Shown here piece by piece: positions 15,713-29,641 of a stretch of DNA of 64,000 nt. Origin of the DNA: Candidatus Micrarchaeia archaeon (lineage in GTDB: Archaea; Micrarchaeota; Micrarchaeia; Anstonellales; Anstonellaceae); assembly GCA_041663445.1 (NCBI GenBank), contig JBAYMR010000008.1, forward strand, positions 662-64,661, written 5' to 3'. Below the pieces are notes generated by a model. The model was not told where the DNA came from. It saw only the letters and a list, made by a program, of their open reading frames with translations, and searched no databases. The number at the start of each line of letters is the position of its first letter. Position 1 is the first letter of the stretch. Made by a program: the position numbers and the translations under genes.

Positions 15713-16531
15713 TCAGTGCAGCCTTAACAGCATTGCAATAAGATTTCCTTTCACCAATCTCCAGTCTGATGGGCGCAGCGCCACTGGGATGAATGGGTTG
15801 GTCAGGCTTTGCAGCTTTTTTGCGTCAGCCTTTTCCACGGCAGCAATCGCCTTTTCCAAAAATTCATCCGGCGTCATTTCCTTGCCTTCGGATTCCAGCA
15901 TGTGCGCGATGGGCTGGCGCATCCTGCCGCAAAGTGGCAGCGCGGCATGGCAGTCATAAACGTCCTTTCCCTCGCACCTGTCTGCAAGCGCGCAAAGCTT
16001 CCGGGAAGTCAAGTCCTCAAGGGAATAAATCAGGAAACCCGTCACAGAGCGCTGCGAGAACAGCGAAGTTGCGGTGCCAATCGATGGCTTGGCGCTGGAA
16101 ATGATTTTTTTCGTTGAAATGTCAATCCTCACATTGTCCATGCCGCCAAGGGGCGTTTTGTAGCGGCAACAGAATTGCAGCGTTTTCCTCACCTTTCTTG
16201 CAGGCTCAACTGAATAGCCCTCAAGCGAGGATGCAATCTCCCCGCAGCGCGTGTTTATTTCAGCCAAATCCGCGCCCATGTCAAAATCCAGGTCCTCTGA
16301 GAACCTCTGCACCCCTCCTAAGTACACCTTGCTCAGCGCAGTGCCTCCCTTGAATATCATATCCTTCCTGAATTCCTCGCGCGAGCAAAGCTGCGCCAGC
16401 ACGTCCATCACGTAGAATTCCTTCACCACGAACTGCAGCGGCAGCCCATGCTGCACCGCAAGCGCGCGGCAGGCATCAATGTTTGGCGAAATCACGGATA
16501 TCCCTCCTGTTTGGCGCAAGCTTTTTTGCAT
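15713..16531 (-). CDS. AbiEii/AbiGii-family nucleotidyltransferase toxin (type IV TA / abortive infection)
   Basis: Signature MIFKGGTALSKVYLGGVQRFSEDLDFDM near the N-terminus. Lies directly downstream of, and overlapping, an AbiEi-like gene. The start is uncertain: the longest ORF reaches 16555; ATG at 16531 or GTG at 16495 are alternatives. Confidence 0.85.
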   Translation of the reverse strand: MQKSLRQTGGISVISPNIDACRALAVQHGLPLQFVVKEFYVMDVLAQLCSREEFRKDMIFKGGTALSKVYLGGVQRFSEDLDFDMGADLAEINTRCGEIASSLEGYSVEPARKVRKTLQFCCRYKTPLGGMDNVRIDISTKKIISSAKPSIGTATSLFSQRSVTGFLIYSLEDLTSRKLCALADRCEGKDVYDCHAALPLCGRMRQPIAHMLESEGKEMTPDEFLEKAIAAVEKADAKKLQSLTNPFIPVALRPSDWRLVKGNLIAMLLRLH

Positions 16532-17135
16532 AGCCTGCGAATTCCTTTTTCTCATCAGGCGAAAGCGCGCGCCACGCTTCCTCCAGCTTTTCTCTCTCCA
16601 CTGAATATCGCGGCAGGTACAAGCAGTCGAACAGCGTCTTTGCCCTAGTGGAAACTACATACGCGCCCTTTCGCTCAAAGTCAACTGCCCGCTTTCCAAG
16701 TGCAACCGCCCGAAACTCAAACTGCCCGAATCTTTTTGTTTCCGAAGTCGAAGCGGTGGCAACAATGATGGTGAATGGCATCTCAGAAACCATGCCGTGC
16801 AGGTAAAGCGCCGATGAAAACGCGAGGTAGCCATTGTAGGTTGCCTGCGCGCACGCGAATGCATCCTTCATCGGGCTGGCTGAATAGGTGCCGCGCTTGA
16901 GCCGCACAATCCTGCCCGTCTTGTTCAGGCGCGAAAGCGCAACTTTCAGCGAATCGCGCCCGCACAGGCGAAGGCTTCCCAGCATTTCCAGCGTTGCAAT
17001 CCCGTTGGGGGAAGCCTCAATGGCAGAAACCACGCGCGAAACAGCCTTTTCAGAGAACATGCTATAATAAACAATTTGTTTATTATAAGGCTTTTGGTCA
17101 AAAATGGGAAAATCGTGCAACATCGTCCGAGCCAC
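16476..17135 (-). CDS. AbiEi-family antitoxin / transcriptional regulator
   Basis: 219 aa. N-terminal wHTH-like segment ending ...LSRLNKTGRIVRLKRGTYS, as in AbiEi/COG5340 proteins. Paired with AbiEii. Confidence 0.75.
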   Translation of the reverse strand: MARTMLHDFPIFDQKPYNKQIVYYSMFSEKAVSRVVSAIEASPNGIATLEMLGSLRLCGRDSLKVALSRLNKTGRIVRLKRGTYSASPMKDAFACAQATYNGYLAFSSALYLHGMVSEMPFTIIVATASTSETKRFGQFEFRAVALGKRAVDFERKGAYVVSTRAKTLFDCLYLPRYSVEREKLEEAWRALSPDEKKEFAGYAKKLAPNRRDIRDFAKH

Positions 17136-17181
17136 GAGTCAGTATCGTCTTATTTATTAATTTTGCCGCGCGAACCCCATC

Positions 17182-19086
17182 ATGGCAAAAGTAACTCTTC
17201 CCGACGGAAAAATGCTCGATGTGCCCGCAGGCTCAACGGCAGCGGACGCAATCGGCAAGATTGGCAAGCGCCTCCTCGCGGCGACATACGCGGCGTCAAT
17301 CAATGGGAAGCAGGTTGACCTCTCTTACAAGCTGCCTGACGAGTGCACGCTCAAGGCATTCACCTACGCCTCGCCCGAAGGCAAGGAAGTATTCCTCCAT
17401 TCGGCGGCGCATTTGCTTGCAATGGCGGTGAACCGCCTTTACCCTGATGTTCTTCCGACAATCGGCCCGGTTGTGGAAGAGGGCTTTTACTACGACTTTG
17501 CCAACGCGCCCGCATTCACTCCCGGCGACTTGGAAAAAATAGAGGCAGAGATGGCGAAAATCGTTGCTGAAAACCTCCCCTTCAGGCGCGTGGAAGTGGG
17601 CAAGCAGGACGCGCTTGGGCTCTTTGCCGGCAACAAGTTCAAGCTCGAAATGGCGAACGACATCGCGGACGGCGAGCACTCCGTCTATTACACCGGCGAC
17701 AAGTGGTTCGACCTGTGCAGGGGCCCGCACGTCCCGGCGACAGGCGCGATTGCGGCATTCAAGCTCACAAAAGTCTCCTCCGCCTACTGGCGCGCGGACG
17801 CAACGAAGGACAACCTCCAGAGGATTTACGGAATCGCATTCCCTGAAAAGAAGCAGCTCGACGCCTACCTGTCGCTGCAGGAGGAGGCGGAAAAGCGCGA
17901 CCACAGGAAGCTCGGGCGCGAACTCGGGCTTTTCACGTTCCATGAATGGTCCCCGGGCAGCCCGTTCTTCCTTCCCAAGGGCACAATCATGGTGAACGAA
18001 ATACTCGCCTACCTCCGCGAGCAGTACATCAGGCGCGGCTACCAGGAAGTGGTGACGCCGCAGCTTTACAACAAGGCGCTCTGGGAGCAGTCGGGCCACT
18101 GGGGCTATTACCAGGAAAACATGTTCATCCTGAAGGTGGACGATGCCGAATACGCGCTCAAGCCGATGAACTGCCCGTCCCACATGCTCATCTACAACAT
18201 GTCATCGCACTCATACCGCGACCTTCCGCTTCGAATCGCGGACTTCTGCATGCTCCACAGGAACGAGGTGAGGGGCGCGCTTGGCGGGATGACCCGCGTG
18301 CGCAAGTTCTCGCAGGACGACGCGCACATCTTCCTTGCGCCCGAGCAGATTGGCGACGAAATAGACAGGCTGATAGACTTCACGAAATTCATCTTCATCA
18401 GCACCTTCAAGTTCGAATTCACCGCCAAGCTTTCCACCATGCCTGAAAAGCACATGGGCGAGCTGGCGCAGTGGGGCGCGGCGGAAAAATCGCTCGAGGA
18501 CGCGCTCAAGCGCAACGGGATAAAATACATCATAAATGCCGGCGACGGCGCATTCTACGGCCCCAAGATTGACTTTGACGTGAAAGACGCGCTCGGGCGC
18601 GGCTGGCAGCTTGCCACCATCCAGGTGGACTTCCAGATGCCCGCGCGCTTCCACTGCGAGTACGAGGGCGCTGACGGGCAGAGGCACACCTGCGTGGTGC
18701 TGCACCGCGCGCTCATCGGCAGCGTGGAGCGCTTCATGGGAATAATCACCGAGCATTATGCCGGCAAGTTCCCGGTCTGGCTCTCGCCGGTGCAGGTCTC
18801 GCTCCTTTCGGTCTCCGACCCCTACAACGAGTTCGTTGAATCGCTTGCCGCGCGCATGCGCGAGGGCGGCATCCGTGCAGAGGCGAACTGCAGGCAGGAG
18901 ACAATCGGCGCAAAGATACGCAGCGCGCAGCTTGAGAAAATCCCATACATGCTGGTTGTCGGACAGAAGGAGAAGGACAGCGGAAAGCTCGCCATCCGCA
19001 CGCGCGATGGGAAAGTGGAAGAGAACGTCTCAATAGACGACTTCATCGCGCGCGTGATGAAAGAGATAAATGAGCGCGCGTGCTGA
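17182..19086 (+). CDS. thrS: Threonyl-tRNA synthetase
   Basis: 634 aa. N-terminal TGS-like MAKVTLPDGKMLDV, a second additional domain, class II core (KPMNCPSHMLIY, RVRKFSQDDAHIF), and an anticodon-binding C-terminus. Confidence 0.95.
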   Translation: MAKVTLPDGKMLDVPAGSTAADAIGKIGKRLLAATYAASINGKQVDLSYKLPDECTLKAFTYASPEGKEVFLHSAAHLLAMAVNRLYPDVLPTIGPVVEEGFYYDFANAPAFTPGDLEKIEAEMAKIVAENLPFRRVEVGKQDALGLFAGNKFKLEMANDIADGEHSVYYTGDKWFDLCRGPHVPATGAIAAFKLTKVSSAYWRADATKDNLQRIYGIAFPEKKQLDAYLSLQEEAEKRDHRKLGRELGLFTFHEWSPGSPFFLPKGTIMVNEILAYLREQYIRRGYQEVVTPQLYNKALWEQSGHWGYYQENMFILKVDDAEYALKPMNCPSHMLIYNMSSHSYRDLPLRIADFCMLHRNEVRGALGGMTRVRKFSQDDAHIFLAPEQIGDEIDRLIDFTKFIFISTFKFEFTAKLSTMPEKHMGELAQWGAAEKSLEDALKRNGIKYIINAGDGAFYGPKIDFDVKDALGRGWQLATIQVDFQMPARFHCEYEGADGQRHTCVVLHRALIGSVERFMGIITEHYAGKFPVWLSPVQVSLLSVSDPYNEFVESLAARMREGGIRAEANCRQETIGAKIRSAQLEKIPYMLVVGQKEKDSGKLAIRTRDGKVEENVSIDDFIARVMKEINERAC

Positions 19087-19629
19087 TTACAGCTCAATAT
19101 ACATTGGCACTGTTTCCATTTTTGAAGGGTCTGCAATGAATGTCCTGAAACCTTTGTGCATGTACCATTCAATCTTGTCAGTGTAAACATGTGCCATAAG
19201 ATAGGCACAACCGATTTCATTTTGCATCTGCAGGGCTTTGCTTGCAGCATATGCAAGAAGAAGCGATGCCCCTCCTCGGGTTTCCTCTCGCTTGTCTGTT
19301 GCCAGCTTGCCAATAAGAAGCGCCGGGAAATTCCTCGGAAACTCTTTTGGATATTCCTTTAGCCGCTTTCCCCTGAATTCAAATTCATCGCCTTCAGGTA
19401 TTTTCAGTGCGCCCATAGAAAGTGTGATGTAAGAGATAAGCCGGTTCCCTTCCTTGCTGAAAAGGAGATATGTCGCGCCAAGGTTGAGATTTTGGTATCC
19501 AAGGGCGTCTTTTGCCAGGAAGTCATTCAACTCCTCTTTGTCAGATTCAAAAGCAGAGACAGCTGTGCAATGGGGATTGCCCAGTAGTGATATGTAACAA
19601 TCCGAATCGCCATACCTTGCGCCCGGCAT
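19087..19629 (-). CDS. GNAT-fold acetyltransferase of the toxin type (TacT/KacT/AtaT-like)
   Basis: 180 aa. The N-terminal pattern F-ESDKEELNDFLAKDAL...GATYLLFS..LISYITLSMGAL and the core LIGKLATDKREETRGGASLLLAYAASKAL match my memory of GNAT toxins (F.CG...L..FL...A; LL.RLAVD...QG.GLG..LL). Its stop codon abuts the thrS stop codon. Confidence 0.7.
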   Translation of the reverse strand: MPGARYGDSDCYISLLGNPHCTAVSAFESDKEELNDFLAKDALGYQNLNLGATYLLFSKEGNRLISYITLSMGALKIPEGDEFEFRGKRLKEYPKEFPRNFPALLIGKLATDKREETRGGASLLLAYAASKALQMQNEIGCAYLMAHVYTDKIEWYMHKGFRTFIADPSKMETVPMYIEL

Positions 19630-19638
19630 GGTTCCACC

Positions 19639-19782
19639 TTACCGTAGCTGAAGGTTAATCCTTCTTGCCTCGGCAAAAAGCCTGTCTTTTGCCGGATTGG
19701 GTTTTGGGCTGAGGATGTCATCAAGGAAGCGCTGGGCTTCCTCCTTGCTCATCTCAATGACTGTTTGTATTGGCTTTGCCAT
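19639..19782 (-). CDS. Untracked 47-aa ORF (MAKPIQTVIEMSKEEAQRFLDDILSPKPNPAKDRLFAEARRINLQLR), candidate antitoxin partner of the GNAT toxin
   Basis: Translated by hand; it falls below the ORF-track size cutoff. It ends 9 nt before the GNAT start. GGAGAGG lies 3 nt upstream of the ATG, and a TATA-like CTTTATATAG (rc of 19814-19823) lies about 35 nt upstream. Confidence 0.5.
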   Translation of the reverse strand: MAKPIQTVIEMSKEEAQRFLDDILSPKPNPAKDRLFAEARRINLQLR

Positions 19783-19878
19783 TTTCCTCTCCGTTAATTT
19801 CTTCGCGCCCCATCTATATAAAGAATCGCGTACGGTTTTATAAACTACAAAAAAGGGATAAAAGAAAGAGCATGCTGA

Positions 19879-20727
19879 TTACATCTCGCTTGCCCCGTAA
19901 TCCTCATCAAAAACTGCGCCTGATTTTTTCTTCTTAGCCTTTGCCTGCTGCTTTTCAGATGCGCCTTCTGTTTCCAGCTGCTTGCTTCTCTTCCAGAATT
20001 CCTCAAAATACGCCTTGAACGAGTCCGCAATCTCCTGATTTGTTATCTCGACGGTAATAGGCACTTTTGCCTGCAAGCCGATAACTGCAACATCCTTGTA
20101 GCCCATGAACCATGCCGGCGTGTCTATGCTGTTCGGCATGTACCTTGCGTCGCAAAGCGCGTGCCTGTTCCTGCTTCGGAGCACGCTTATGTCGGTATCC
20201 GGGTGGAAAAGCATCCTTGCCTTTATGCCCAGCTTCGCGCGCCTTGCATGGTCCTGAAGCCAATATGCATGGAAATGCGCCTCCTGCTGCGCTGGCACGC
20301 CCATGTAATAGTACCCTTCCCCGCGCGAGAGCTTCTGGTATGTGCGCTCATGCGCGGTTATCATGCCTTTGAAGCCCATGTACACCTTTGCTTCGCTCTC
20401 CTTCGCAGAGCATTGCAAGCCGTACAATTTCGGCAAAAGTTCGTCCATTTTCAGCCGGTTTTCCCGGAATTTCCTTTCTTCCTCTTCAAGGTATTCCCTT
20501 ATCCTGGAAGGCTCGGCTGCCTGGAAATATCTTGTCTTTTCCTTAGTGATGTGCGACACCAGCCCTTTTTGCGAAAGCCGGTCCAGGAGATGGTAGATTA
20601 TTGACCTTGAAACGCCTGACTTTTCCACAATGGGGCCGGATGTGGAAGGCCCAAGCTCCAAAAGCGCGAGATAGACCTTGCTTTCGCCCTCGGTAAGCCC
20701 CGCCTGCCTCAGCATCCCGGTGTCCAT
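19879..20727 (-). CDS. TrmB-family transcriptional regulator
   Basis: MDTGMLRQAGLTEGESKVYLALLELGPSTSGPIVEKSGVSRSIIYHLLDRLSQKGLVSHI is a TrmB-type wHTH. The 101 codons upstream in the track ORF (to 21030) look non-coding and overlap the divergent promoter region. Confidence 0.85.
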   Translation of the reverse strand: MDTGMLRQAGLTEGESKVYLALLELGPSTSGPIVEKSGVSRSIIYHLLDRLSQKGLVSHITKEKTRYFQAAEPSRIREYLEEEERKFRENRLKMDELLPKLYGLQCSAKESEAKVYMGFKGMITAHERTYQKLSRGEGYYYMGVPAQQEAHFHAYWLQDHARRAKLGIKARMLFHPDTDISVLRSRNRHALCDARYMPNSIDTPAWFMGYKDVAVIGLQAKVPITVEITNQEIADSFKAYFEEFWKRSKQLETEGASEKQQAKAKKKKSGAVFDEDYGASEM

Positions 20728-20848
20728 GCGCTCATTTGCGCGCTTCCCATATATAATGCTTACTATTAGCACACCACCCCTGGTATGCAAGTCTATATAT
20801 ACTCCATAACCACAAACAACAACACAGAACAACAAATGAGGTGGGACT

Positions 20849-21562
20849 ATGATTATGAAGAATGGAACGGCAACCGGAATGAACAGGCATGCCCGCGCAG
20901 CAGTACGCTTCGCAGGTGCCGCCCTCCTGGCGGGTACGCTGATGCTTTCTTCGAAGCCGCTTCTGGCGCAGGCTGATACTTCGGCAACCGGCAAGACGCA
21001 AAAGAAGATAGCGCTTATGTTCCAGCCCAAGGCAATCGCGCGAGTTTACGGAGCAGCGCAAAAGCCAGCATTTGGCGCGGGCTTGGAGGCGTCAGCTGAT
21101 TTTGGCAAGGCAAGCGCAGGCGCCAGCGGCTCGCTTGTGCTGGAGGGCAATAAACCTATTGTGGAAGAGACGCAGCTCTGGGTCGGCGTGCCAATCGGCA
21201 AGACATTTGCCATCTGTTACGCATACACTGACAAGTTCTACAATGTCGACGTGAAAGACCCAGCCTTTGGCATGCTTCTCAAACACGGCATCGTGAAGGC
21301 AGGGGTGGAGATGGGCAAGGACTTCACTTGCCAGTACCTCAAGGTGGCGCTGCCCGGGAATGTCACGCTTGGAGGCGTGTTGCTGGAGTGGGGTGGCAAG
21401 ACGGGCTACTTCGCCCCGATAGGGGGCGTGCAGCGCGCAGGGGCGAGCCTGGGCATTGACGCAAAACTTCTGGGCAAGCCCCTCAAGGTCGAGGTGCAGT
21501 ACACCCAGCCGACTGGCGTGGGAAAGAACGGGCTGCAGCTAAGGCTGGTGCTGACGCCTTAA
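20849..21562 (+). CDS. Hypothetical secreted protein with a beta-strand-like periodicity
   Basis: N-terminal RHARAAVRFAGAALLAGTLMLSSKPLLAQA looks like a signal peptide. The remainder has alternating hydrophobic patterns (KIALMFQP, SLVLEG, QLWVGVPIG, FAICYAYT, LKVEVQYT, LQLRLVLTP). I recognise no family. Confidence 0.55.
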   Translation: MIMKNGTATGMNRHARAAVRFAGAALLAGTLMLSSKPLLAQADTSATGKTQKKIALMFQPKAIARVYGAAQKPAFGAGLEASADFGKASAGASGSLVLEGNKPIVEETQLWVGVPIGKTFAICYAYTDKFYNVDVKDPAFGMLLKHGIVKAGVEMGKDFTCQYLKVALPGNVTLGGVLLEWGGKTGYFAPIGGVQRAGASLGIDAKLLGKPLKVEVQYTQPTGVGKNGLQLRLVLTP

Positions 21563-21592
21563 AAAGACGAAAAAAATAAAAAAAGATAAAAT

Positions 21593-21616
21593 GGGGCGCG
21601 CACCGCCCCTTCTTTT
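21593..21616. terminator. Bidirectional terminator-like hairpin between convergent genes
   Basis: GGGGCG-CGCAC-CGCCCC followed by TTCTTTT on the + strand. It is preceded by a long A-rich run (21561-21591), which reads as a T-run for argG on the - strand. Confidence 0.5.
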
Positions 21617-21619
21617 GCC

Positions 21620-22867
<1,248 letters not shown>

Positions 22868-23005
22868 TTTACTACCTCCTTGCCACTAAAAGCGTTGGCA
22901 TTCCTCACCGTTGCAGCATTAAAAAAGCCTATGTTACATTTGGGACAAAACGTCTCGGAAACTAGGCAATTGCTTCCGCCTTCGTCTTTGGCTTGCGCGC
23001 CGAAG

Positions 23006-23692
23006 TCAGGCAGAAGCTATCGCTTCCGCCATCTGCGTGAGCAGATTCTTCGGGTCTTTCGCCTTCACGTACGCGCTCGCAAGCAGCACGCCTTTCGCGC
23101 CAAGCTCCACTGCCTTTTTCACGTCCGATGCGCTTGAAACGCCTGCGCCGCAAAGCACCGGCGTGCCATTCACCTTTGCAACAGCCTCCACTGTCCCGCT
23201 CACCACTTCGGGCTTTGCGGTGGAAACCGAGATGCCGCTGCCGATAAGCTCCGGCGGCTCCACGGCTATGTAAGTGGGCCCGTATTTTGCCAGGCGCGCG
23301 CTTTCCTCCGCGTCCTTCGTGCAAAGCATGCTCTCCAGCCCGGCTCCCTTCAGGCGCTCAATCGTTTTCGCAATCAGTTCCTCGGGCAGCCTGTGCTCGG
23401 AGTGGTTGACAAGCGACCCCTTGCAGCCTGCTGCCTTTATTGCCTCGACGGTGAGCGTGCCCGTGAACGCGCCCTGCTCATTCGCATCTACATGCTGCGC
23501 GAAAACGTCCGTGCACGTCTGGCATGCCTCGCGTAAGTCCACCGATTGCGGCGCAACGATGATTCTCACGCCGGTAAGAAGCGACACTTCCACGGCATGC
23601 CTGCAAAGCTCGGCGCCTTTCTCGCCCAGCGACTCTGGGTAAGCCTTCAAATTCAGGGCAATTATCGGTTTCATGCTCATCACCAATGACAT
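23006..23692 (-). CDS. tpiA: Triosephosphate isomerase, short archaeal type
   Basis: About 225 aa. KPIIALNLKAY...NHSEHR...EPPELIGSG...CGAGV pattern. The start is probably at MSMKPII or MKPII. Confidence 0.9.
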   Translation of the reverse strand: MSLVMSMKPIIALNLKAYPESLGEKGAELCRHAVEVSLLTGVRIIVAPQSVDLREACQTCTDVFAQHVDANEQGAFTGTLTVEAIKAAGCKGSLVNHSEHRLPEELIAKTIERLKGAGLESMLCTKDAEESARLAKYGPTYIAVEPPELIGSGISVSTAKPEVVSGTVEAVAKVNGTPVLCGAGVSSASDVKKAVELGAKGVLLASAYVKAKDPKNLLTQMAEAIASA

Positions 23693-23803
23693 GCCGAAAT
23701 AACCTTATTAAACAATTGCCGTCTAACTGACGTTGAGGCGCCCTCCGGGCTCCAATGACCTGAAACAAGATTTGCAGATGCCGCTTTGCGGCAATCTGAA
23801 CAC

Positions 23804-23913
23804 GCCGACGTGGCAGAATCCGGTATCGCGCTAGACTCGAGATCTGATGCGGGGTTTTCCACAAGAAATCTAGTGCCCCTCGGGGCTTAGGAGTTCAAAT
23901 CTCCTCGTCGGCG
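23804..23913 (+). tRNA. tRNA-Ser (anticodon CGA) with a 26-nt intron at the canonical 37/38 position
   Basis: Acceptor GCCGACG/CGTCGGC is perfect, with discriminator G. Anticodon stem CTAGA/TCTAG forms only after removing 23842-23867. Loop CT-CGA-GA, anticodon at 23838-23840. Long variable arm TGCCCCTCGGGGCT. T arm AGGAG-TTCAAAT-CTCCT. A T6 run follows. The D stem is imperfect in my fold. Confidence 0.85.
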
Positions 23914-24170
23914 TTTTTTGCTTCCAAAAAAGCCTCCTCGGATTTTGAGCCTCCGGCTCAAAATCTCGCCGGCTTCGCCGTCGATTTCCTCGTCGGTGTT
24001 CATTTTCATTCGCGCCTCCTCAGTTTTGGCGCTTTCGCGCCAAAATCCGTCGTTGTGCTGTGGCACAACTTCGTCTCCTCGTCGGCGTTTTTTGCTTCCA
24101 AAAAAGCCTCCTCGGATTTTGAGCCTCCGGCTCAAAATCTCGCCGGCTTCGCCGTCGATTTCCTCGTCGG
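23900..24170 (+). repeat. Tandem hairpin units bounded by copies of the tRNA-Ser 3' end. 23900-23996 is repeated at 24074-24170.
   Basis: 97/97 identity by my reading. CCTCGTCGG occurs at 23903, 23988, 24077 and 24162. Perfect hairpins at 23914-23931, 23941-23965, 24024-24045 and 24053-24068, plus their copies. Confidence 0.9.
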
Positions 24171-24211
24171 CATTTTTTATTGTATTGGAAATTCTATAAA
24201 TTTCCAATAGC

Positions 24212-24239
24212 AGACAAAATCTGTCCGCAGATTTTGTCT
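24212..24239. repeat. 28-nt perfect hairpin/palindrome AGACAAAATCTG-TCCG-CAGATTTTGTCT, with a paralog at 36725-36752
   Basis: 12-bp stem. The second copy, GGACAAAGTCTG-TCCG-CAGACTTTGTCC, differs at 4 positions that form two compensatory pairs. Confidence 0.85.
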
Positions 24240-24325
24240 TTTCCAAAAATGGCGACCATTTTTCCAGCGGGAAAAATAGGGCGGCGTTTTTTATTATTCC
24301 CTTTCAATACTCCATTGGTGGTTTC

Positions 24326-24739
24326 ATGCAATCCCGCAAGGAAAAAACAGGATACTGGCTCATGCTCGGAAAAGGCGACGACGTGGTCCCCTCCATTTCC
24401 GAATGGGCGCGCAAGAACCGGATTAAGGGCGCGCAGGTGTGGGGCGTGGGCGCGGTAACCGATGCCAAGCTCGCTTGCTACTACCCGCGCTCGAAAAAAT
24501 GGAAAACCATGCCATTTTCAAGTGAAAGCTACGAGCTCCTCTCTTTCATGGGCAACATAAACGAGGACGGGCTCCACGCGCACGTCTGCATATCCGATTC
24601 CGGCTTCAGGGTATTCGGCGGGCACTTGATAAGCGCAAAAATATCCGTCTTCGGCGAATTTTTCATCCTGCCGACCTCCAAGCTTGGGAAAAAATCAGTG
24701 CCAAGCGTCGGGCTAAGAGGCATCAGCCTGGAAAAGTAG
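24326..24739 (+). CDS. PPC/DUF296-domain protein (PD1-like predicted DNA-binding protein)
   Basis: GYWLMLGKGDDVVPSISEWARKNRIKGAQVWGVGAV..YELLSFMGNI...LHAHVCISDSGFRVFGGHL...GEFFI follows the DUF296 pattern I remember. Confidence 0.75.
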   Translation: MQSRKEKTGYWLMLGKGDDVVPSISEWARKNRIKGAQVWGVGAVTDAKLACYYPRSKKWKTMPFSSESYELLSFMGNINEDGLHAHVCISDSGFRVFGGHLISAKISVFGEFFILPTSKLGKKSVPSVGLRGISLEK

Positions 24740-24746
24740 CGCGCGC

Positions 24747-25214
24747 TCACTTTTTTATTTCTCCAAGCACGCCGACGTAGTTCTTGCCCCTTTTCTTCGC
24801 GCATTTCGGGCACGTGGTGTACCACATGTAAAGCTTGCCGATTTCCATTCCCTTTTCCTTTGCGTATTCGTAAAACTCCTTGCACCACTTGCCCGTCTCC
24901 TTGAAGTCGCCCTCGTAGATTTTGCAAAGGTACTTGCCTGTCAGGCGCGCCGACTTTTCGCCCGGCACATCCTTGCCGCACGGCACATAAATGTCCATGT
25001 TGAACATCGAGGTGTGGTCAGAGAGGCACGGGCCATTTCCCCACGCTATGCCTGCCGCCTGCGTTTTCCTGAACAGGCGCGAAATAACGCTGCCAAAGTT
25101 GATGGGCATGTAAAACAGGCAAAGCACGCTTGCCTTGATGAAAGGCTCGTCGTTCCATTCGATAACCTTGCCGTCCCACGGCGCCGGGTCGAACTTCGGG
25201 CAGCATTCTTCCAT
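24747..25214 (-). CDS. Conserved-looking hypothetical protein with Cys motifs at both ends (N-terminal CC, C-terminal CPKC)
   Basis: 155 aa: MEECCPKFDPAPWDGKVIEW...YTTCPKCAKKRGKNYV. GGAGGG lies 5 nt upstream of the ATG. I cannot name the family with confidence. Confidence 0.6.
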   Translation of the reverse strand: MEECCPKFDPAPWDGKVIEWNDEPFIKASVLCLFYMPINFGSVISRLFRKTQAAGIAWGNGPCLSDHTSMFNMDIYVPCGKDVPGEKSARLTGKYLCKIYEGDFKETGKWCKEFYEYAKEKGMEIGKLYMWYTTCPKCAKKRGKNYVGVLGEIKK

Positions 25215-25238
25215 AAAATCCCTCCGTACACAGATTCA

Positions 25239-25402
25239 AGCCCCCGACGGGCGTCAAATGCGGGGCATTTGGCGCGATTTTGGCTCAATGGGCCAAAAGT
25301 CGGGCTGGCTTTCGGATGAAGTGGGAAAGCCCCCGACGAGATTTGGACTTGCGAGCATCAAAACCGAAGGTTTTGGTGCGATTTTGCGCCGAAGGCGCAA
25401 AA
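25239..25402 (-). repeat. Two hairpin units (74 and 89 nt) downstream of tRNA-Thr, each ending in a copy of the tRNA 3' end
   Basis: On the tRNA strand, the tRNA ends ...TTCAAATCCCATCGGGGGCT. Unit 1 ends TCCAAATCTCGTCGGGGGCT (rc of 25328-25347). Unit 2 ends CCCGTCGGGGGCT (rc of 25239-25251). Hairpins at 25382-25402, 25359-25375, 25278-25298 and 25255-25271. Confidence 0.85.
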
Positions 25403-25473
25403 GCCCCCGATGGGATTTGAACCCATGACATCCAGTTTACGAAACTGGCGCTCTACCGCTGAGCTACAGGGGC
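25402..25473 (-). tRNA. tRNA-Thr (anticodon CGU), no intron
   Basis: Reverse complement folds as GCCCCTG-TA-GCTC-AGCGGTA-GAGC-G-CCAGT-TTCGTAA-ACTGG-ATGTC-ATGGG-TTCAAAT-CCCAT-CGGGGGC-T. All stems pair, with one G-U in the acceptor. Confidence 0.9.
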
Positions 25474-25517
25474 GCACTCTCCGTAATTATTTTGAAAGCC
25501 TTTAAAATAGTGCGCCG

Positions 25518-26321
25518 TCAGACCGCTTCCAGCCCATGCAATATCGGTTTTCCGTCCTTTATCCATGCGAGCGCTTTCTCGGCGTCGGTTTCCTTCGCGC
25601 CCTGCTTCTTGAAATAGCGCGCGATGTTCTCGACGTCCCTCCGCAGGAATTCCTCGGCGTGCGGGTGCGCGAGGAGCACCGCCTGCGCGCAGTCCAGTAT
25701 CTTGAGCCCGTCGTCCGTAACCAGGATGTTGTACTCCGACAGGTCGGCATGCACGAATCCCGCCTGGTAAATCCTCTTTATCTGCTCGATTATGAACTCG
25801 TAGTCCTTCTGCGGGTGCGCGCTTCCCACCTGCGAAATCTGCGAGAACGCAATGTTTCCCTCGCCGAAGAATTCCATCACCACGATGTTCCGCAGGAACC
25901 CGAGCGGACGGGGCACCGCAACGCGCGCCTCGTGGAATTTGGCCAGGTTGCTGTACTCCTTCCGCGCCCAGGCAAGTATCGTTTCATACCTTTTGCGCGA
26001 GGTGCCGGCAAAGCGCGGGTCGCCGTCCAAGTAGTCGTGCATGTGGACAAAATTGGAAGTGTCAATGCGATAAATCTTGATTGCCACCTTGCCCCCTTCT
26101 TTCGTGGTGGCGAGGAAAACAATGGCCTCCTTCCCCTTGGCAATGGGGTATTCCATGGAGTCGAAGTGCCCGGACTGGCGGAGCTTGGTGATTGCAAAGC
26201 GCGTCTCGCGGTCAAACACCTGCTCTTCCAGCGGGTCCTCCCTCTTGATTTGCTTGGTTTCGCGATTCGGGCGCTTGCGGTTGCTCTGTGTTGCCATTTT
26301 CAATACCTTTTCACTCAACAA
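25518..26321 (-). CDS. RIO-type serine/threonine protein kinase (Rio1-like)
   Basis: GKEAIVFLA...VAIKIYR...VHADLSEYNILV, with no N-terminal wHTH. The start may be the ATG at 26297. Confidence 0.88.
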   Translation of the reverse strand: MLSEKVLKMATQSNRKRPNRETKQIKREDPLEEQVFDRETRFAITKLRQSGHFDSMEYPIAKGKEAIVFLATTKEGGKVAIKIYRIDTSNFVHMHDYLDGDPRFAGTSRKRYETILAWARKEYSNLAKFHEARVAVPRPLGFLRNIVVMEFFGEGNIAFSQISQVGSAHPQKDYEFIIEQIKRIYQAGFVHADLSEYNILVTDDGLKILDCAQAVLLAHPHAEEFLRRDVENIARYFKKQGAKETDAEKALAWIKDGKPILHGLEAV

Positions 26322-26453
26322 AATGGCAATAAGCCGCCGTCAAGTCCGAAGGCGGCTGTGTTGCCATACTATCACTTCAGAAGACGCGGTTAATATGGCT
26401 TGCTGTCGGAGCCCACGGGCGCGTGCTGCACATTGCGGCTCGGTGCCGCCCGC

Positions 26454-26756
26454 TTACTTGATGTGCCCCTTGTTCCTCAGCCACTCTGCCTGGTACTTGT
26501 TGTAGCGCCAGACGATGTCCGCTTTCTTGTCCCCGCCGATTTCCCAGGGTTTTATTATTACGATGTCCCCGTCGCGCACCCAGATGAAGCGGCGTATCTT
26601 CCCGGGTATCCTGCACATCCTCTCCTTCCCGTCCTTGCACTGCACGGTGAGCCTGCCTCCGCCCACGTTGCCGATTACCACGCCCAATATTTCCCCCTCT
26701 GCCTCGTTCGGGAGCTTTACCCAGCTTATCTCGGGCGGCGGTTGTGGAGTTGCCAT
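26454..26756 (-). CDS. Translation initiation factor aIF-1A
   Basis: GEILGVVIGNVGGGRLTVQCKDGKERMCRIPGKIRRFIWVRDGDIVIIKPW is the S1-like fold signature. The ATG at 26756 is preferred over the GTG at 26765. Confidence 0.92.
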   Translation of the reverse strand: MATPQPPPEISWVKLPNEAEGEILGVVIGNVGGGRLTVQCKDGKERMCRIPGKIRRFIWVRDGDIVIIKPWEIGGDKKADIVWRYNKYQAEWLRNKGHIK

Positions 26757-26765
26757 AATGAACAC

Positions 26766-27170
26766 CTAAATCCTCACTGGCGCGCGTGCGCCGCACGCTT
26801 CGCATACAAGCATCTTTACCCCGTCCTTCTCGATTATCTTGGTGTCGGGCCTCTTGCATTCCTTGCACACCACCGCCGCATCCACGAAAGCCTGCAGCTT
26901 GTCCTGCAGGTTCCGCGTATAGAATTTGCCGTTGAGCACCAGCTTCCCGCCCTGTATCGTGACCGGGACGGCGAGCTCGCGGCTGAAGTACTTGGACAGC
27001 AGCTCCGGCGGCCTCCGTATCTTCTGGAGTATGATGTCAAAATTCCTCACGAGCGTCTTGCTGCCCTGCAGGAATGATTCCACCTGCGGCGTCTCGAACC
27101 GCTCGAAGGCGAGCGTTTTTTCGGGCAGCGCCGCGCGCGCCCTGTCAAGCATTTTTTCGTAGTCATCCAT
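26766..27170 (-). CDS. Translation initiation factor aIF-2 beta subunit
   Basis: MDDYEKMLDRARAALPEK... with the C-terminal zinc ribbon VVCKECKRPDTKIIEKDGVKMLVCEACGA. The upstream 56 codons of the track ORF were rejected. Confidence 0.9.
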   Translation of the reverse strand: MDDYEKMLDRARAALPEKTLAFERFETPQVESFLQGSKTLVRNFDIILQKIRRPPELLSKYFSRELAVPVTIQGGKLVLNGKFYTRNLQDKLQAFVDAAVVCKECKRPDTKIIEKDGVKMLVCEACGARAPVRI

Positions 27171-27240
27171 CCAACTAAACCTCGTAATGGGAGGAATTTG
27201 GTACGAAAGCTTTAAAGGGCATTGGCGCATCATTGCCGCC

Positions 27241-27585
27241 ATGGCAATGGAAATCAGCCGCAAAACGCCCATTGGCGAGCTTGTGCTCAACCACCCTGTT
27301 TCAGCATCAATACTCCTTGAGCATGGCTTCCACTGCATAGGCTGCGGCCTGGCAGCTTACGAGACAATAGAGGAAGGCGCAGCCGCGCACGGCTTTGACG
27401 ACGCGGCAATCAACGCGCTCGTGCAGGAAATAAAGGACGCGGCAAGGAAAGAGGAAGAACTGCTCAGCAAGGTTGACGATTCCCTCGGAACTGGGGGTGC
27501 TGCAAGCCCCCATGCAAAAATGCCTGCGGCTAAAGAGAGCCAAAAGCCTGAAAAGGGCGGAAAGAAGAAATCAAAATCCGGCTAG
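27241..27585 (+). CDS. DUF1858-type small protein (hybrid-cluster-protein-associated redox disulfide domain) with a Lys-rich tail
   Basis: MEISRKTPIGELVLNHPVSASILLEHGFHCIGCGLAAYETIEEGAAAHG matches my memory of DUF1858. Start at 27241 or 27247 rather than 27187. Confidence 0.7.
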   Translation: MAMEISRKTPIGELVLNHPVSASILLEHGFHCIGCGLAAYETIEEGAAAHGFDDAAINALVQEIKDAARKEEELLSKVDDSLGTGGAASPHAKMPAAKESQKPEKGGKKKSKSG

Positions 27586-27617
27586 TTTTACGAGCAGGAG
27601 CGCAGCTAAAGTCCGCC
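27571..27617. repeat. Direct repeat copy A flanking the Doc cassette
   Basis: TCAAAATCCGGCTAGTTTTACGAGCAGGAGCGCA (27571-27604) matches 28158-28191 at 33/34 positions, followed by gapped similarity ending in AGTCCGCC. Confidence 0.9.
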
Positions 27618-27693
27618 TATTGCATTGAGAAGCTTCCTGTGCCCATCCACAATCTTGTTGAAGCTCGCAATTTCCTCTGATACTATTTTGAGC

Positions 27694-28101
27694 CTAGAGG
27701 CTTCGCTTGAATTCCCTGATTTTGCCATGCTTTATCCACTCCATTATTTCTTCATTCGAATAATAATCTTCTCGTACTCCCTGCATTACCCTTGCATAAT
27801 TAGGGTCATCAACTATCTTGAATTTGCCTCCATTTGAAAGCACGAATGATTTTGCTGCGATGAACGCAGTTCTCCGGTTTCCGCTTGCAAAAGCGTGTTT
27901 TTTCACAAGCGCTTCTAACAAGGCGGCTGCTTTTTTGTATATGTCTCCTTCGGCGTTTTGGCATTCCTCGACCGCTTCCATTATTTTTGGGTAGCTAAGC
28001 ACGCGGTGTGAATCGGCTTTTTTCACTTTTATCAACGTGAGCACAAGGAAATTGAATTCAACTATCCTCTCAACGCTCGGATATGCCACATCACTTTCCA
28101 T
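27694..28101 (-). CDS. Fic/Doc-family toxin (death-on-curing-like)
   Basis: The core KHAFASGNRRTAFIAAKSFVLSNGG fits the Doc/Fic motif H-x-F-x-(D/x)-(G/A)-N-(K/R)-R-T-A. Start at the ATG at 28101 (MESDVAYPSVERIVEFN), which lies 26 nt downstream of a TTTATAAA box. The track start at 28161 lies inside the flanking repeat. Confidence 0.8.
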   Translation of the reverse strand: MESDVAYPSVERIVEFNFLVLTLIKVKKADSHRVLSYPKIMEAVEECQNAEGDIYKKAAALLEALVKKHAFASGNRRTAFIAAKSFVLSNGGKFKIVDDPNYARVMQGVREDYYSNEEIMEWIKHGKIREFKRSL

Positions 28102-28123
28102 GAGGTGAATATGCCGAAGGCTG

Positions 28124-28131
28124 TTTATAAA
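28124..28131 (-). promoter_or_regulatory. TATA-box-like TTTATAAA positioned for a leaderless Doc transcript
   Basis: Its centre is about 26 nt upstream of the ATG at 28101, which is the archaeal TATA-to-TSS spacing. Confidence 0.4.
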
Positions 28132-28157
28132 TATGCTTTCTCCCGGAAAAATTGTGC

Positions 28158-28202
28158 TCAAAATCCGGCTAGTTTTACAAGCAGGAGCGCAAGCAGTCCG
28201 CC
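28158..28202. repeat. Direct repeat copy B flanking the Doc cassette. It also encodes the real 3' end of the presenilin-like gene.
   Basis: See copy A. The offset between copies is 587 bp. Confidence 0.9.
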
Positions 28203-29048
28203 CAGGCAGATTGGCGGGAGCGCGGGAAGGAAAACCCTTTGCTTGGACACGAACTTCAGAAGCGCGTAGAGCGCGATGGTGGAGCCCGTGGCAACAGCAA
28301 GCGAGTAAATCAGGCCGTTGGGGCCAAGCGTATAAGCCGACACTGCAACCATGGCGGGGACGGACAGGTCGCCGGTCCCAAGGTCCAGCCTGTCCCCGTC
28401 CCTGTTCGCGCGCTCCACGTACGCTTCGGCGTTTTCATCCTGCTTCCTTGCAGGCGCCTCTTTCGCAGTCACCGCGAATGACAGGTCCCGCGTGGAAAGC
28501 TCGCGCGCCATCTCCACCATATGCCTTGTCTTGAAGACCGCGATGTAGTCGTATATCGAGAGCAGGATTGTGAAAATGACCGCGGGCAGGAAACCGAGCG
28601 AAAAGCCGAATATCGCCCCCACCCCCGCGCTGGATATTATGGCGGCGGCATTCTTTGCCCCTGCCCAGGCGAATTTTGCGGCTGCAAGCAGCGCGCCCAG
28701 CACGCCGCCGAAAGCAAGCGCCTCCAGCAGCCCCATGTTAAGCGGGAACAGCGCGAAGGCGAAGAAAACTATGCTTGACGCGGAAAATATCACCATCGCC
28801 TCGAGGAGCCGGAACATCATCATTCCCTTGTAGTAGCGCGCAGCAAGTATCACCGCGACTGCGCCGAAAAGTATGTATCCGAGGAAAAACAGCGCGTTCA
28901 TGGGGTCGTTGGCAGTCGGCATGGGCGCAACGGAAAGCGACTGGATGTCCGGGTTCGTCATTGCGCCCTGTATGAGCACAACTCCGGCGTATATCCCGAT
29001 TATCTGCGTGAGCGCGAAGAACAATGCGACCTGGAAGTAAGTTTTCAT
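28158..29048 (-). CDS. Presenilin / signal-peptide-peptidase family intramembrane aspartyl protease (peptidase A22)
   Basis: All three family motifs are present in a polytopic protein: YD (LLSIYDYIAVF), GxGD (LDLGTGDLSVPAM) and PAL (FLPALPP). Start at MKTYFQV (29048). Confidence 0.88.
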   Translation of the reverse strand: MKTYFQVALFFALTQIIGIYAGVVLIQGAMTNPDIQSLSVAPMPTANDPMNALFFLGYILFGAVAVILAARYYKGMMMFRLLEAMVIFSASSIVFFAFALFPLNMGLLEALAFGGVLGALLAAAKFAWAGAKNAAAIISSAGVGAIFGFSLGFLPAVIFTILLSIYDYIAVFKTRHMVEMARELSTRDLSFAVTAKEAPARKQDENAEAYVERANRDGDRLDLGTGDLSVPAMVAVSAYTLGPNGLIYSLAVATGSTIALYALLKFVSKQRVFLPALPPICLGGLLALLLVKLAGF

Positions 29049-29073
29049 TTTTTCACCAATGTTTGCCCGATTG

Positions 29074-29526
29074 CTATTTCTTCCTCTTGAGCTTCTTAAG
29101 CGCGTCCTCGAACGAGTCAATGTCCGTGAACGAGCGGTACACGGACGCGAAGCGTATGTAAGCGACGTCGTCCACCTTGCGCAGGCGCTCCATCACAAGC
29201 TCGCCGATGCCGTTTGTCTCAATCTCCTTTTTCCCGCTCTTCCGCAGCTTCCCTTCCACCCAGTTCGCCATCTCCTCAATCTGCTCGCGGGAAACCGGGC
29301 GCTTTTCGCACGACCTTTCCAGGCCGGACATGAGCTTGCGCCTGTCGAACTTCTCGCGCCTGCCGTCCTTTTTTATCACGAAGATGTCCTCCTTGTCCAC
29401 CTCCTCGTACGTGGTGAACCTGCGCTTGCACTTGGAGCACTCGCGGCGGCGCCTGATGCGGAAGTCGTCGGTGTCGCGGCTGTCCACGACATCCGTTTCG
29501 CTGTGCGCGCAATAAGGGCATCTCAT
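29074..29526 (-). CDS. nrdR: NrdR-type transcriptional repressor (zinc ribbon plus ATP-cone)
   Basis: MRCPYCAHSETDVVDSRDTDDFRIRRRRECSKCKRRFTTYEEV followed by an ATP-cone-like segment; 150 aa. Confidence 0.9.
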   Translation of the reverse strand: MRCPYCAHSETDVVDSRDTDDFRIRRRRECSKCKRRFTTYEEVDKEDIFVIKKDGRREKFDRRKLMSGLERSCEKRPVSREQIEEMANWVEGKLRKSGKKEIETNGIGELVMERLRKVDDVAYIRFASVYRSFTDIDSFEDALKKLKRKK

Positions 29527-29641
29527 GGGAAGGGATGGCGCAAGTAGGATTAAAAAAGCGAGTGGCGCCTTTTTAGGCGGGAGGATGCGGCGGCATTCCG
29601 CACCAATAAAAGGGTTGCCGTGCTATCCTTCGCGTGGTAAT

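Follow-up and report, generated by a model that had tools for sequence, protein, structure and literature searches.

How did a two-gene cassette come to lie directly against the stop codon of a threonyl-tRNA synthetase gene, and why does the same short sequence stand at both of its ends? This question is raised by a locus in a 64,000-nt stretch of DNA from a Candidatus Micrarchaeia archaeon (contig JBAYMR010000008.1, positions 662–64,661; the whole stretch is called the window, and all coordinates refer to it). The cassette comprises 0.76 kb and two genes only. It lies stop-to-stop against thrS, and on its other side a gene for a TrmB-family transcription regulator follows. According to the analysis described here, the repeat copy at the TrmB side is the remnant of a second thrS 3' end. 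The present arrangement probably arose (we assign a probability of about 0.6) from one recent homology-facilitated illegitimate recombination between two related genomes.

The thrS gene (17182–19086, plus strand; 634 aa, C-terminus ...VMKEINERAC) was identified from its open reading frame (ORF) and from the Pfam domains TGS, tRNA_SAD, tRNA-synt_2b and HGTP_anticodon, and its stop codon TGA occupies 19084–19086. The gene of a 180-aa GNAT toxin homologue (19087–19629, minus strand) begins with its stop codon TTA at 19087, abutting the thrS stop. The 47-aa ORF of a putative short antitoxin (19639–19782, minus strand) lies upstream of the toxin gene. The regulator gene (19879–20727, minus strand; stop codon TTA at 19879) encodes a 282-aa helix-turn-helix (HTH) protein of a long-tailed form, which ends in ...GASEM and matches PF01978 and the TrmBL1/TrmB HTH models of NCBIfam. 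The original prediction had called this gene trmB. The position of the gene against the right repeat copy was correctly given, but the product is a PF01978 regulator and not a tRNA methyltransferase.

The segments 19065–19095 and 19857–19887 are identical at 25 of 31 positions, with an 11-nt perfect core (TGCTGATTACA) and an offset of 792. Without gaps, the repeat extends to 36 nt (19060–19095 and 19852–19887), of which 29 are identical. The sequence facts on which the original prediction was based were all re-read correctly. The left copy (19060–19095, plus strand) consists of the working thrS 3' end, read as INERAC up to the TGA, together with the stop codon and the last two codons of the toxin gene. 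The right copy abuts the TrmB stop codon and is read as IKERAC and a stop codon in the thrS frame; four of the five in-frame differences between the copies are synonymous, with the codon changes as listed before. The 47-aa ORF does lie between the copies. The final 9 nt of the repeat (TTACAGCTC and TTACATCTC) encode the native C-termini of both minus-strand products, EL and EM, respectively. Since the ...YIEL end is kept across the toxin family and the ...SEM end is kept in long-form TrmB, this part is pre-existing similarity, which was not necessarily duplicated.

A permutation test, proposed with the original prediction, shows that the similarity at the two boundaries is unusual. The local alignment score between two 80-nt junction segments is 37. 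This score was reached by 6 of 20000 random same-strand window pairs, all of which are true repeats elsewhere, and by none of 20000 shuffles. Two further assemblies, L001 and L002, also contain this structure; their sequence does not differ from that of the window in the region, and they confirm the window assembly. Because of this identity, the three assemblies represent one population and not independent lineages. As a separate observation, L001 is identical to the window over 12778–29629, and 106 mismatches are found in the 470 nt before (12307–12777), at the L001 contig end; 12777/12778 is a sharp boundary between strain variants.

When the right copy is extended by three codons in the thrS frame, it is read as KKGIKERAC and a stop codon (19849–19878, plus strand), and is non-coding here. 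We call this segment the fossil. The thrS 3' ends of 14 relatives were gathered, and the last 30 nt of each were scanned on both strands of the window. Besides the real thrS end, the top match is exactly 19849–19878, at 25 of 30 positions (to the end of L083), and the next best match anywhere is 21 of 30. The clade consensus of the thrS C-terminus is ...KKEIKERAC and stop, with which the fossil peptide agrees at nine of ten residues. Individual ends are KKEIKERAC in L083, KKEIKERMC in L087, KKEIKERIC in L090, KNEIKERVC in L089 and VKEIKQRAC in L088. Compared with the clade, the working end of the window itself (MKEINERAC) is the unusual one, and it is closest to that of L088 (31 of 36), a locus without the cassette.

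Chance similarity or an assembly chimera is hardly credible as the source of the repeat. It is true that one end of the short repeat is A-rich, and that all carrier assemblies come from one population. However, the score of the repeat is not reached by any shuffle and by only six random pairs, and the best thrS-end match in the 128 kb scanned (64-kb window, both strands) falls exactly at the boundary. In the case of a chimera, three separate assemblies agree, and only about 6 nt of overlap would be available for a false join.

Between the fossil and the working end of L083, there are five differences. All are transitions, giving four synonymous codons and one nonsynonymous codon. The probability of at most one nonsynonymous codon among five random substitutions is 0.0035 under a uniform model and 0.031 with transitions only, and this is moderate evidence because the comparator was the best of seven and was picked after looking. 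The divergence of the fossil from working ends is no greater than that among the working ends. The fossil is also closer to the L083 thrS end (25 of 30) than to its own left copy (22 of 30). From the sequence we conclude that the right copy is a real thrS 3' end, coding until recently, and that its allele is different from that of the adjacent working end. This agrees with the original prediction, in which a diverged thrS 3' end of the type of a related genome was recombined in, and the alignment of relatives' ends proposed there gave the L083 working end as the best match. Two further candidates were rejected. Gene conversion that refreshed an old fossil is ruled out by the closer relationship to L083 than to the left copy, and a conserved functional motif at convergent gene ends is ruled out by the lack of conservation of the right copy in L083 and L087.

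A target-site duplication would also place direct repeats exactly at both ends of an insert, and the foreign composition of the insert (GC content of 45–48% in the cassette versus 57–62% in thrS) would fit a transposition-like insertion in place, after which the copies diverged. The original prediction regarded a neutrally decaying duplication as less likely, and this origin is now largely refuted and very improbable. A length of 30–36 nt is far beyond that of usual duplications, and the 17-kb gene table around the site holds no transposase. No terminal inverted repeats were found, and no inverted repeats pair the cassette ends. The fossil is nearer to the thrS end of another lineage than to its partner, with mostly synonymous differences. 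Moreover, the same insertion in relatives and the cassettes elsewhere have no such repeat: the other cassette copies gave no flanking repeats (P = 0.95 for L129, 0.11 for L125 and 0.56 for L126).

The fossil was also sought in the relatives. When all thrS ends were run without gaps against 14 loci, nothing rose above noise (maximum 21 of 30), and no second thrS end was found by ungapped scanning in L083, L087/L124 or L123. The right joint of L083 (…CAGCGTGCGTACAGG) has only a 6–7-mer in common with thrS ends, which was judged not significant. Read on the minus strand, the fossil gives T-runs (CTCTTTCTTTTATCCCTTTTTT) that immediately follow the TrmB stop codon and precede the cassette promoter. 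As judged from the sequence, it may now act as a TrmB terminator.

The interval between thrS and TrmB was surveyed in ten close relatives found through thrS (including genome and metagenome contig scans) and in five found through TrmB. Seven lineages have a slot between thrS and TrmB, and its content varies. The window and L083–86 have thrS-[GNAT pair]-TrmB, and L087 and L124 have thrS-[GNAT pair]-[PALP]-TrmB. L123 has a methyltransferase gene in the slot, the P0032 contig has a 157-aa gene and a toxin–antitoxin (TA) pair of PemK and DUF7557, and L089 and L093 have a TPR-like gene and further genes before TrmB. After thrS, a directly convergent argG is found in L092, L094, L095 and L096, a 368-aa gene and a PALP gene in L003, and other cargo in L088, L091 and L097. 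Thus, the slot ranges from direct thrS/argG adjacency up to 3.5 kb of unrelated cargo, including two TA types, and the cargo often abuts the thrS stop to the base.

Some side observations concern the same slot. The TPR-like proteins of L089 (658–960), L091 (5425–5919) and L093 (981–1559) are weakly related (pairwise E of 5e-7 to 0.005). Their genes abut or overlap the thrS stop on the opposite strand and represent an alternative occupant of the toxin-gene position. The PALP (cysteine-synthase-like) gene of L124/L087 is flanked by a gapped repeat of about 19 nt of the TrmB 3' end (AAAATCWGCGAA(C)TGGTTT; in L124, reverse complement, about 986–1020 and 2060–2095). Its score of 26 was reached by 39 of 20000 random pairs, and as a weak hint, it may be a second, weaker insertion scar. 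In addition, thrS of the window (17182–19086) appears mosaic against that of L003 (6001–7902). Similarity is high in the N-terminal segment of about 250 aa and in the C-terminal one of about 130 aa, but the catalytic core has diverged strongly, and the overall identity is 67%. In the flanks of the same locus, identity is 85% for the AbiE genes and 93% for argG. The mosaic suggests allele replacement by recombination within thrS.

The left joint between thrS and the toxin gene, TGCTGA[T/C]TACAGCTCAA, is common to the window, L083, L087/L124 and L090. At the right side, the cassette promoter is common up to TTTTATAAA. Then the window continues with CTACAAAAAAGGGATAAAAGAAAGAGCATGCTGA|TTA (TrmB), L083 with TCGCCAAAATCAGCGTGCGTACAGG|TCA (TrmB), and L087 with CTGCAAAAATCTGCGAATGG… (PALP). 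Since L083–86 and L087/L124 have the same left joint and no fossil, the thrS–cassette joint is older than the right joint of the window. The window, L083, L087/L124 and L123 differ by 12–20% at the protein level, so that neutral sites are probably saturated between them, and any fossil that predates the lineage split is expected to be degraded by now. The good preservation of that in the window thus indicates a recent event within the lineage of the window itself.

According to the reading that we prefer, parent one would have carried thrS already abutting the cassette, and parent two a thrS end abutting the TrmB stop codon. The first joint would be formed by ordinary homologous recombination in or before thrS. 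The second joint would be illegitimate and would fall at an A-run of about 5–6 nt, common to the upstream edge of the cassette and to the lysine codons 30 nt before the thrS stop. The thrS homology of the fossil stops at the A6 run at 19849–19854, which is also the last common stretch of the cassette upstream edge (CTRCAAAAA). The run is the probable microhomology joint, judged from a comparison of the right end of the cassette in L087 (CTRCAAAAA) with the KK codons of thrS in relatives (GTGAAAAAGG). Because the illegitimate joint would fall inside the anchor region, the last 30 nt of thrS would be duplicated, and because these were coding until the event, the fossil can still be read as a good thrS end. 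The 17-kb gene table around the site contains no integrase or recombinase family. Segment identities within thrS are about 75–87%, which is too divergent to place a recombination breakpoint there. An empty thrS|TrmB junction would read thrS…AAAAAGGGATAAAAGAAAGAGCATGCTGA|TTACATCTCGCTTGCC….

The original prediction also held that thrS and TrmB had once been convergent with adjacent stop codons. The fossil at the TrmB stop supports such an ancestral junction. However, relatives with an empty site, which had been suggested as a check, were not found, and the close relatives do not carry the fossil, so the fossil is the one piece of evidence for that junction. Several points weigh against the preferred reading. 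No site with thrS abutting TrmB is present among the ten close thrS and the five close TrmB relatives. The fossil is seen in one population only, all three assemblies that carry it having the same sequence. The repeat is short, the A-run is low-complexity sequence, and the comparator in the synonymous-difference test was chosen after looking, as described above. L083 has the order thrS–cassette–TrmB with no recognizable fossil, and this would require either two separate insertions between the same genes or the loss of the fossil. Homology-facilitated illegitimate recombination is documented in bacteria and is not known from DPANN archaea.

Two other routes lead to the same arrangement. In a Campbell-type integration, a small circle carrying the cassette and the last ~30 nt of a former host's thrS, closed at the A-run, would cross over within the core TGCTGATTACA at a thrS|TrmB junction. 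The left copy would then be the resident end, the fossil would have arrived with the cassette, and in the circle, …CTACAAAAAAGGGATAAAAG… would be continuous with the GNAT end. In favor of this route, both stop codons lie within the 11-nt perfect core, and the unit from repeat to repeat is 792 bp. The fossil resembles the thrS ends of the cassette-bearing L083, L087 and L090, and the working end is closest to that of the cassette-less L088. This affinity of alleles does not discriminate, however, because L083 bears both the cassette and TrmB. We consider the integration of a circle rather unlikely, since the 17-kb gene table shows no integrase nearby, a core of 11 nt offers very little homology for integration, and the other cassette copies are without thrS-like sequence or flanking repeats.

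Alternatively, the TrmB block and not the cassette would be the incoming DNA. A fragment from a thrS|TrmB genome, starting 30 nt inside thrS, would have replaced the right side of an older thrS–cassette pair, with the A-run as the joint on the left and homology near argG on the right. The thrS|GNAT joint common to four lineages, and thus older than the right joint of the window, is in line with this route. So is the variable content to the right of the cassette, namely PALP and TrmB in L087/L124 and TrmB in L083, and argG, 93% conserved, is a possible homologous anchor. Against it, no discordance of similarity is seen across the joint at the available resolution. Its sequence outcome is the same as that of the preferred reading, so nothing separates the two, and we regard it as unlikely. 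A cassette reaching a thrS|TrmB genome, a TrmB block reaching a thrS–cassette genome together with the fossil, and a circle integrating at the 11-nt core are three variants with one sequence outcome.

In a more general and quite doubtful version, the thrS stop region would be a reusable docking site. Small cassettes without an integrase, among them different TA pairs, would carry or capture a thrS 3' end, and as circles they would be inserted through a crossover over short homology at the stop-to-stop core. If this were true, the slot would be an integron-like cargo slot without a dedicated recombinase in tiny DPANN genomes, and the fossil would be one arm of the site and not a one-off scar.

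What the cassette encodes was analyzed by profile and structure. No Pfam family was found for the 180-aa protein at E <= 0.1 and no meaningful NCBIfam match, models of the PF00583/PF13508 type being unmatched, and PF00583 was seen in a single fragmentary homologue (P0026). Against the PDB, the profile built from 21 homologues gave 15 matches, all of them GNAT TA toxins, with E from 2.7e-13 to 6.7e-6. The best match is AtaT2 (7f37, E = 2.7e-13), followed by GmvT, TacT1-3, AtaT and KacT. In the AF2 model (pLDDT 92, pTM 0.87), Foldseek ranks 1–38 are all GmvT, AtaT, AtaT2, TacT1-3, KacT or the 'bacterial toxin' 7byy, with TM scores of 0.67–0.85, and ordinary GNATs score about 0.55 in the same search. 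W155-Y156 is invariant in the 21 homologues. In the alignments of hidden Markov models (HMM), Y156 is aligned with the Tyr of AtaT2 and GmvT, and the counterparts of the catalytic Tyr are Y144 in AtaT and Y145 in KacT (the PDB titles name the mutants Y144F and Y145F). The protein is thus, by profile and predicted fold, a homologue of the TacT/AtaT-type GNAT toxins, as the original prediction had it. By homology, it would acetylate aminoacyl-tRNA and block translation. As a further observation, the archaeal subfamily has, in comparison with the bacterial toxins, an extra conserved loop at about residues 76–100 (19330–19404, minus strand), which contains the invariant residues F83, G87, Y93, K95, F97 and P98, and the model confidence is lower there.

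In a search of 1.84 billion cluster representatives (50% identity) of about 15 billion proteins, the core subfamily was small, with 14 representatives at E <= 1e-30, and it grades into the large toxin family, with 511 at E <= 1e-10. The named members of the core subfamily belong to Micrarchaeia-type archaea. No toxin relative was found in IMG/VR contigs, and a viral or plasmid origin of the cassette was rejected on that ground. As read from the sequence, the spacer between the 47-aa ORF and the toxin gene (19630–19638, minus strand) consists of 9 nt with a GGTGG ribosome-binding motif, and a spacer of 9–10 nt is also found in L083, L125 and L129. The promoter region of the cassette (19783–19848, minus strand) would include a GGAGAGG ribosome-binding site at 19786–19792, the TATA-like TTTATATA at 19815–19822 and TTTATAAAA at 19836–19844. 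Up to TATAAA, L083 and L087 have almost the same sequence, and then the three lineages diverge.

The partner gene is conserved together with the toxin gene. In the window, L083, L087/L124, L125, L126 and L129-131, the toxin gene is preceded at 9–10 nt by a co-oriented ORF of 45–51 aa. The pair is found in four unrelated contexts: between thrS and TrmB, in the vicinity of the gene of the CCA-adding enzyme (L125), in the vicinity of Fic/T2SSE (L126), and after atpD (L129-131), the last three being in other archaea. In the alignment of the 47-aa proteins, K3, P4, I5, E10, F19, P28, N29, P30, A31 and D33 are invariant. In the AF2 model, an extended N-terminus is followed by two helices, which a PKPNP loop joins, and no ribbon-helix-helix (RHH) domain is seen. 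The protein has no Pfam match at E <= 10 beyond noise and no PDB profile match, and the model of the isolated peptide gave no match by Foldseek. The original prediction had suggested an RHH/DUF1778-type antitoxin, which the HMM searches did not bear out. At 47 aa, the protein is about half the length of AtaR or KacA (88 aa). Using hhalign, it was aligned with the C-terminal segment of AtaR/KacA/TacA, which binds the toxin and has the pattern …PPxPN…L..AA..L, over 29 columns in the expected register (EEAQRFLDDILSPKPNPAKDRLFAEARRIN against EESWTRVMDALSNPPSPG-EKLKRAAKRLQ; 34% identity, P = 0.0035), with a weak probability of 9%. The gene order and this weak resemblance to the toxin-binding part suggest a short antitoxin without an RHH domain. 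That the assignment depends on gene order and a profile match of such low probability counts against it. If correct, the protein would neutralize the toxin by binding, like the C-terminal segment of a DUF1778 antitoxin, without the DNA-binding RHH domain.

In the surrounding region, the gene order is AbiEii (15713–16555, minus strand), an AbiEi-like gene (16476–17135, minus strand), thrS, the 180-aa ORF, the 47-aa ORF, the TrmB-family regulator, a 237-aa ORF (20849–21562, plus strand) and argG (21620–22867, minus strand). The AbiEi/AbiEii pair is thus located just upstream of thrS. The closest relatives of the threonyl-tRNA synthetase of the window are metagenome-assembled genomes of Candidatus Micrarchaeota (DPANN), and genes of eIF-1A, eIF-2B and RIO1 are present on contigs identical to the window. 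The ...SEM/TEM C-terminus of the TrmB regulator is kept in L083, L093 and L123. Two forms of TrmB were observed, a long form of 281–293 aa with the ...SEM/TEM end and a short form of about 253 aa ending in ...KPVR or ...GKRQ, and the DPANN homologues are mostly short. The sole tRNA gene in the window, tRNA-Thr(CGT) at 25402–25473, lies 6.3 kb from thrS and from the toxin gene. Its proximity to thrS, and to a toxin whose relatives acetylate aminoacyl-tRNA, is probably a coincidence. A perfect 97-nt direct repeat (23900–23996 and 24074–24170, 174 nt apart) lies inside a 119-aa ORF (23887–24246, minus strand), which therefore has a duplicated peptide segment. Elsewhere in the window, six pairs of diverged direct repeats of 34–92 nt with 80–97% identity were found: 1–94/4776–4867, 1–79/5284–5362, 5279–5357/6623–6701, 6519–6575/11673–11729, 27571–27604/28158–28191 and 47155–47195/48175–48215.

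The locus provides a clean, datable scar of a TA pair that would have entered a chromosome without mobile-element machinery, in DPANN archaea that are not yet culturable or manipulable. With it, the tRNA-acetylating GNAT toxins gain an archaeal branch that escapes standard domain models. If the partner is confirmed to be the toxin-binding segment alone, neutralization and transcriptional autoregulation would be separable in this family. For the study of gene flux between strains of Micrarchaeota, the thrS..TrmB/argG slot is also a compact natural system.

Among known systems, the cassette is most comparable with the type II GNAT/DUF1778 TA systems (TacAT, AtaRT, KacAT and GmvAT). The toxin fold is closest to theirs by profile and by structure, the invariant Tyr falls at the position of the catalytic Tyr, a small gene immediately precedes the toxin gene, and the pair occurs in many genomic contexts. 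In contrast to these systems, the toxin of the window is only 14–21% identical to theirs in the Foldseek alignments, is unseen by Pfam and NCBIfam, has the extra conserved loop, and belongs to an archaeal DPANN host. Its partner of 45–51 aa has no RHH domain and no DUF1778 match, and at best matches the C-terminal toxin-binding segment.

The arrangement also resembles three kinds of insertion. Integrative elements that target gene 3' ends leave a direct repeat of the 3' end at both ends of the insert (attL/attR) while the gene stays intact, as here; in the present case, however, the 17-kb table holds no integrase, the insert is only 0.76 kb, and the repeat is absent at the same insertion in relatives. 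Like chromosomal integration hot spots or variable islands, the thrS..TrmB/argG interval holds unrelated cargo by strain, including two TA systems, but it is very small, from zero to about 3.5 kb, with cargo often abutting the thrS stop. Homology-facilitated illegitimate recombination is described for naturally transformable bacteria. At its scars, one joint is made by homology and the opposite joint by a few nucleotides of microhomology, with no recombinase or element ends, as proposed for this locus. The differences are that the host here is an uncultivated archaeon, that the joint would lie inside the anchor, with 30 nt duplicated and not deleted, and that the parent sequences are not in hand. 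The cassette is an archaeal variant of the GNAT TA family, probably inserted by a known kind of process, and the locus is a tidy example rather than a new process.

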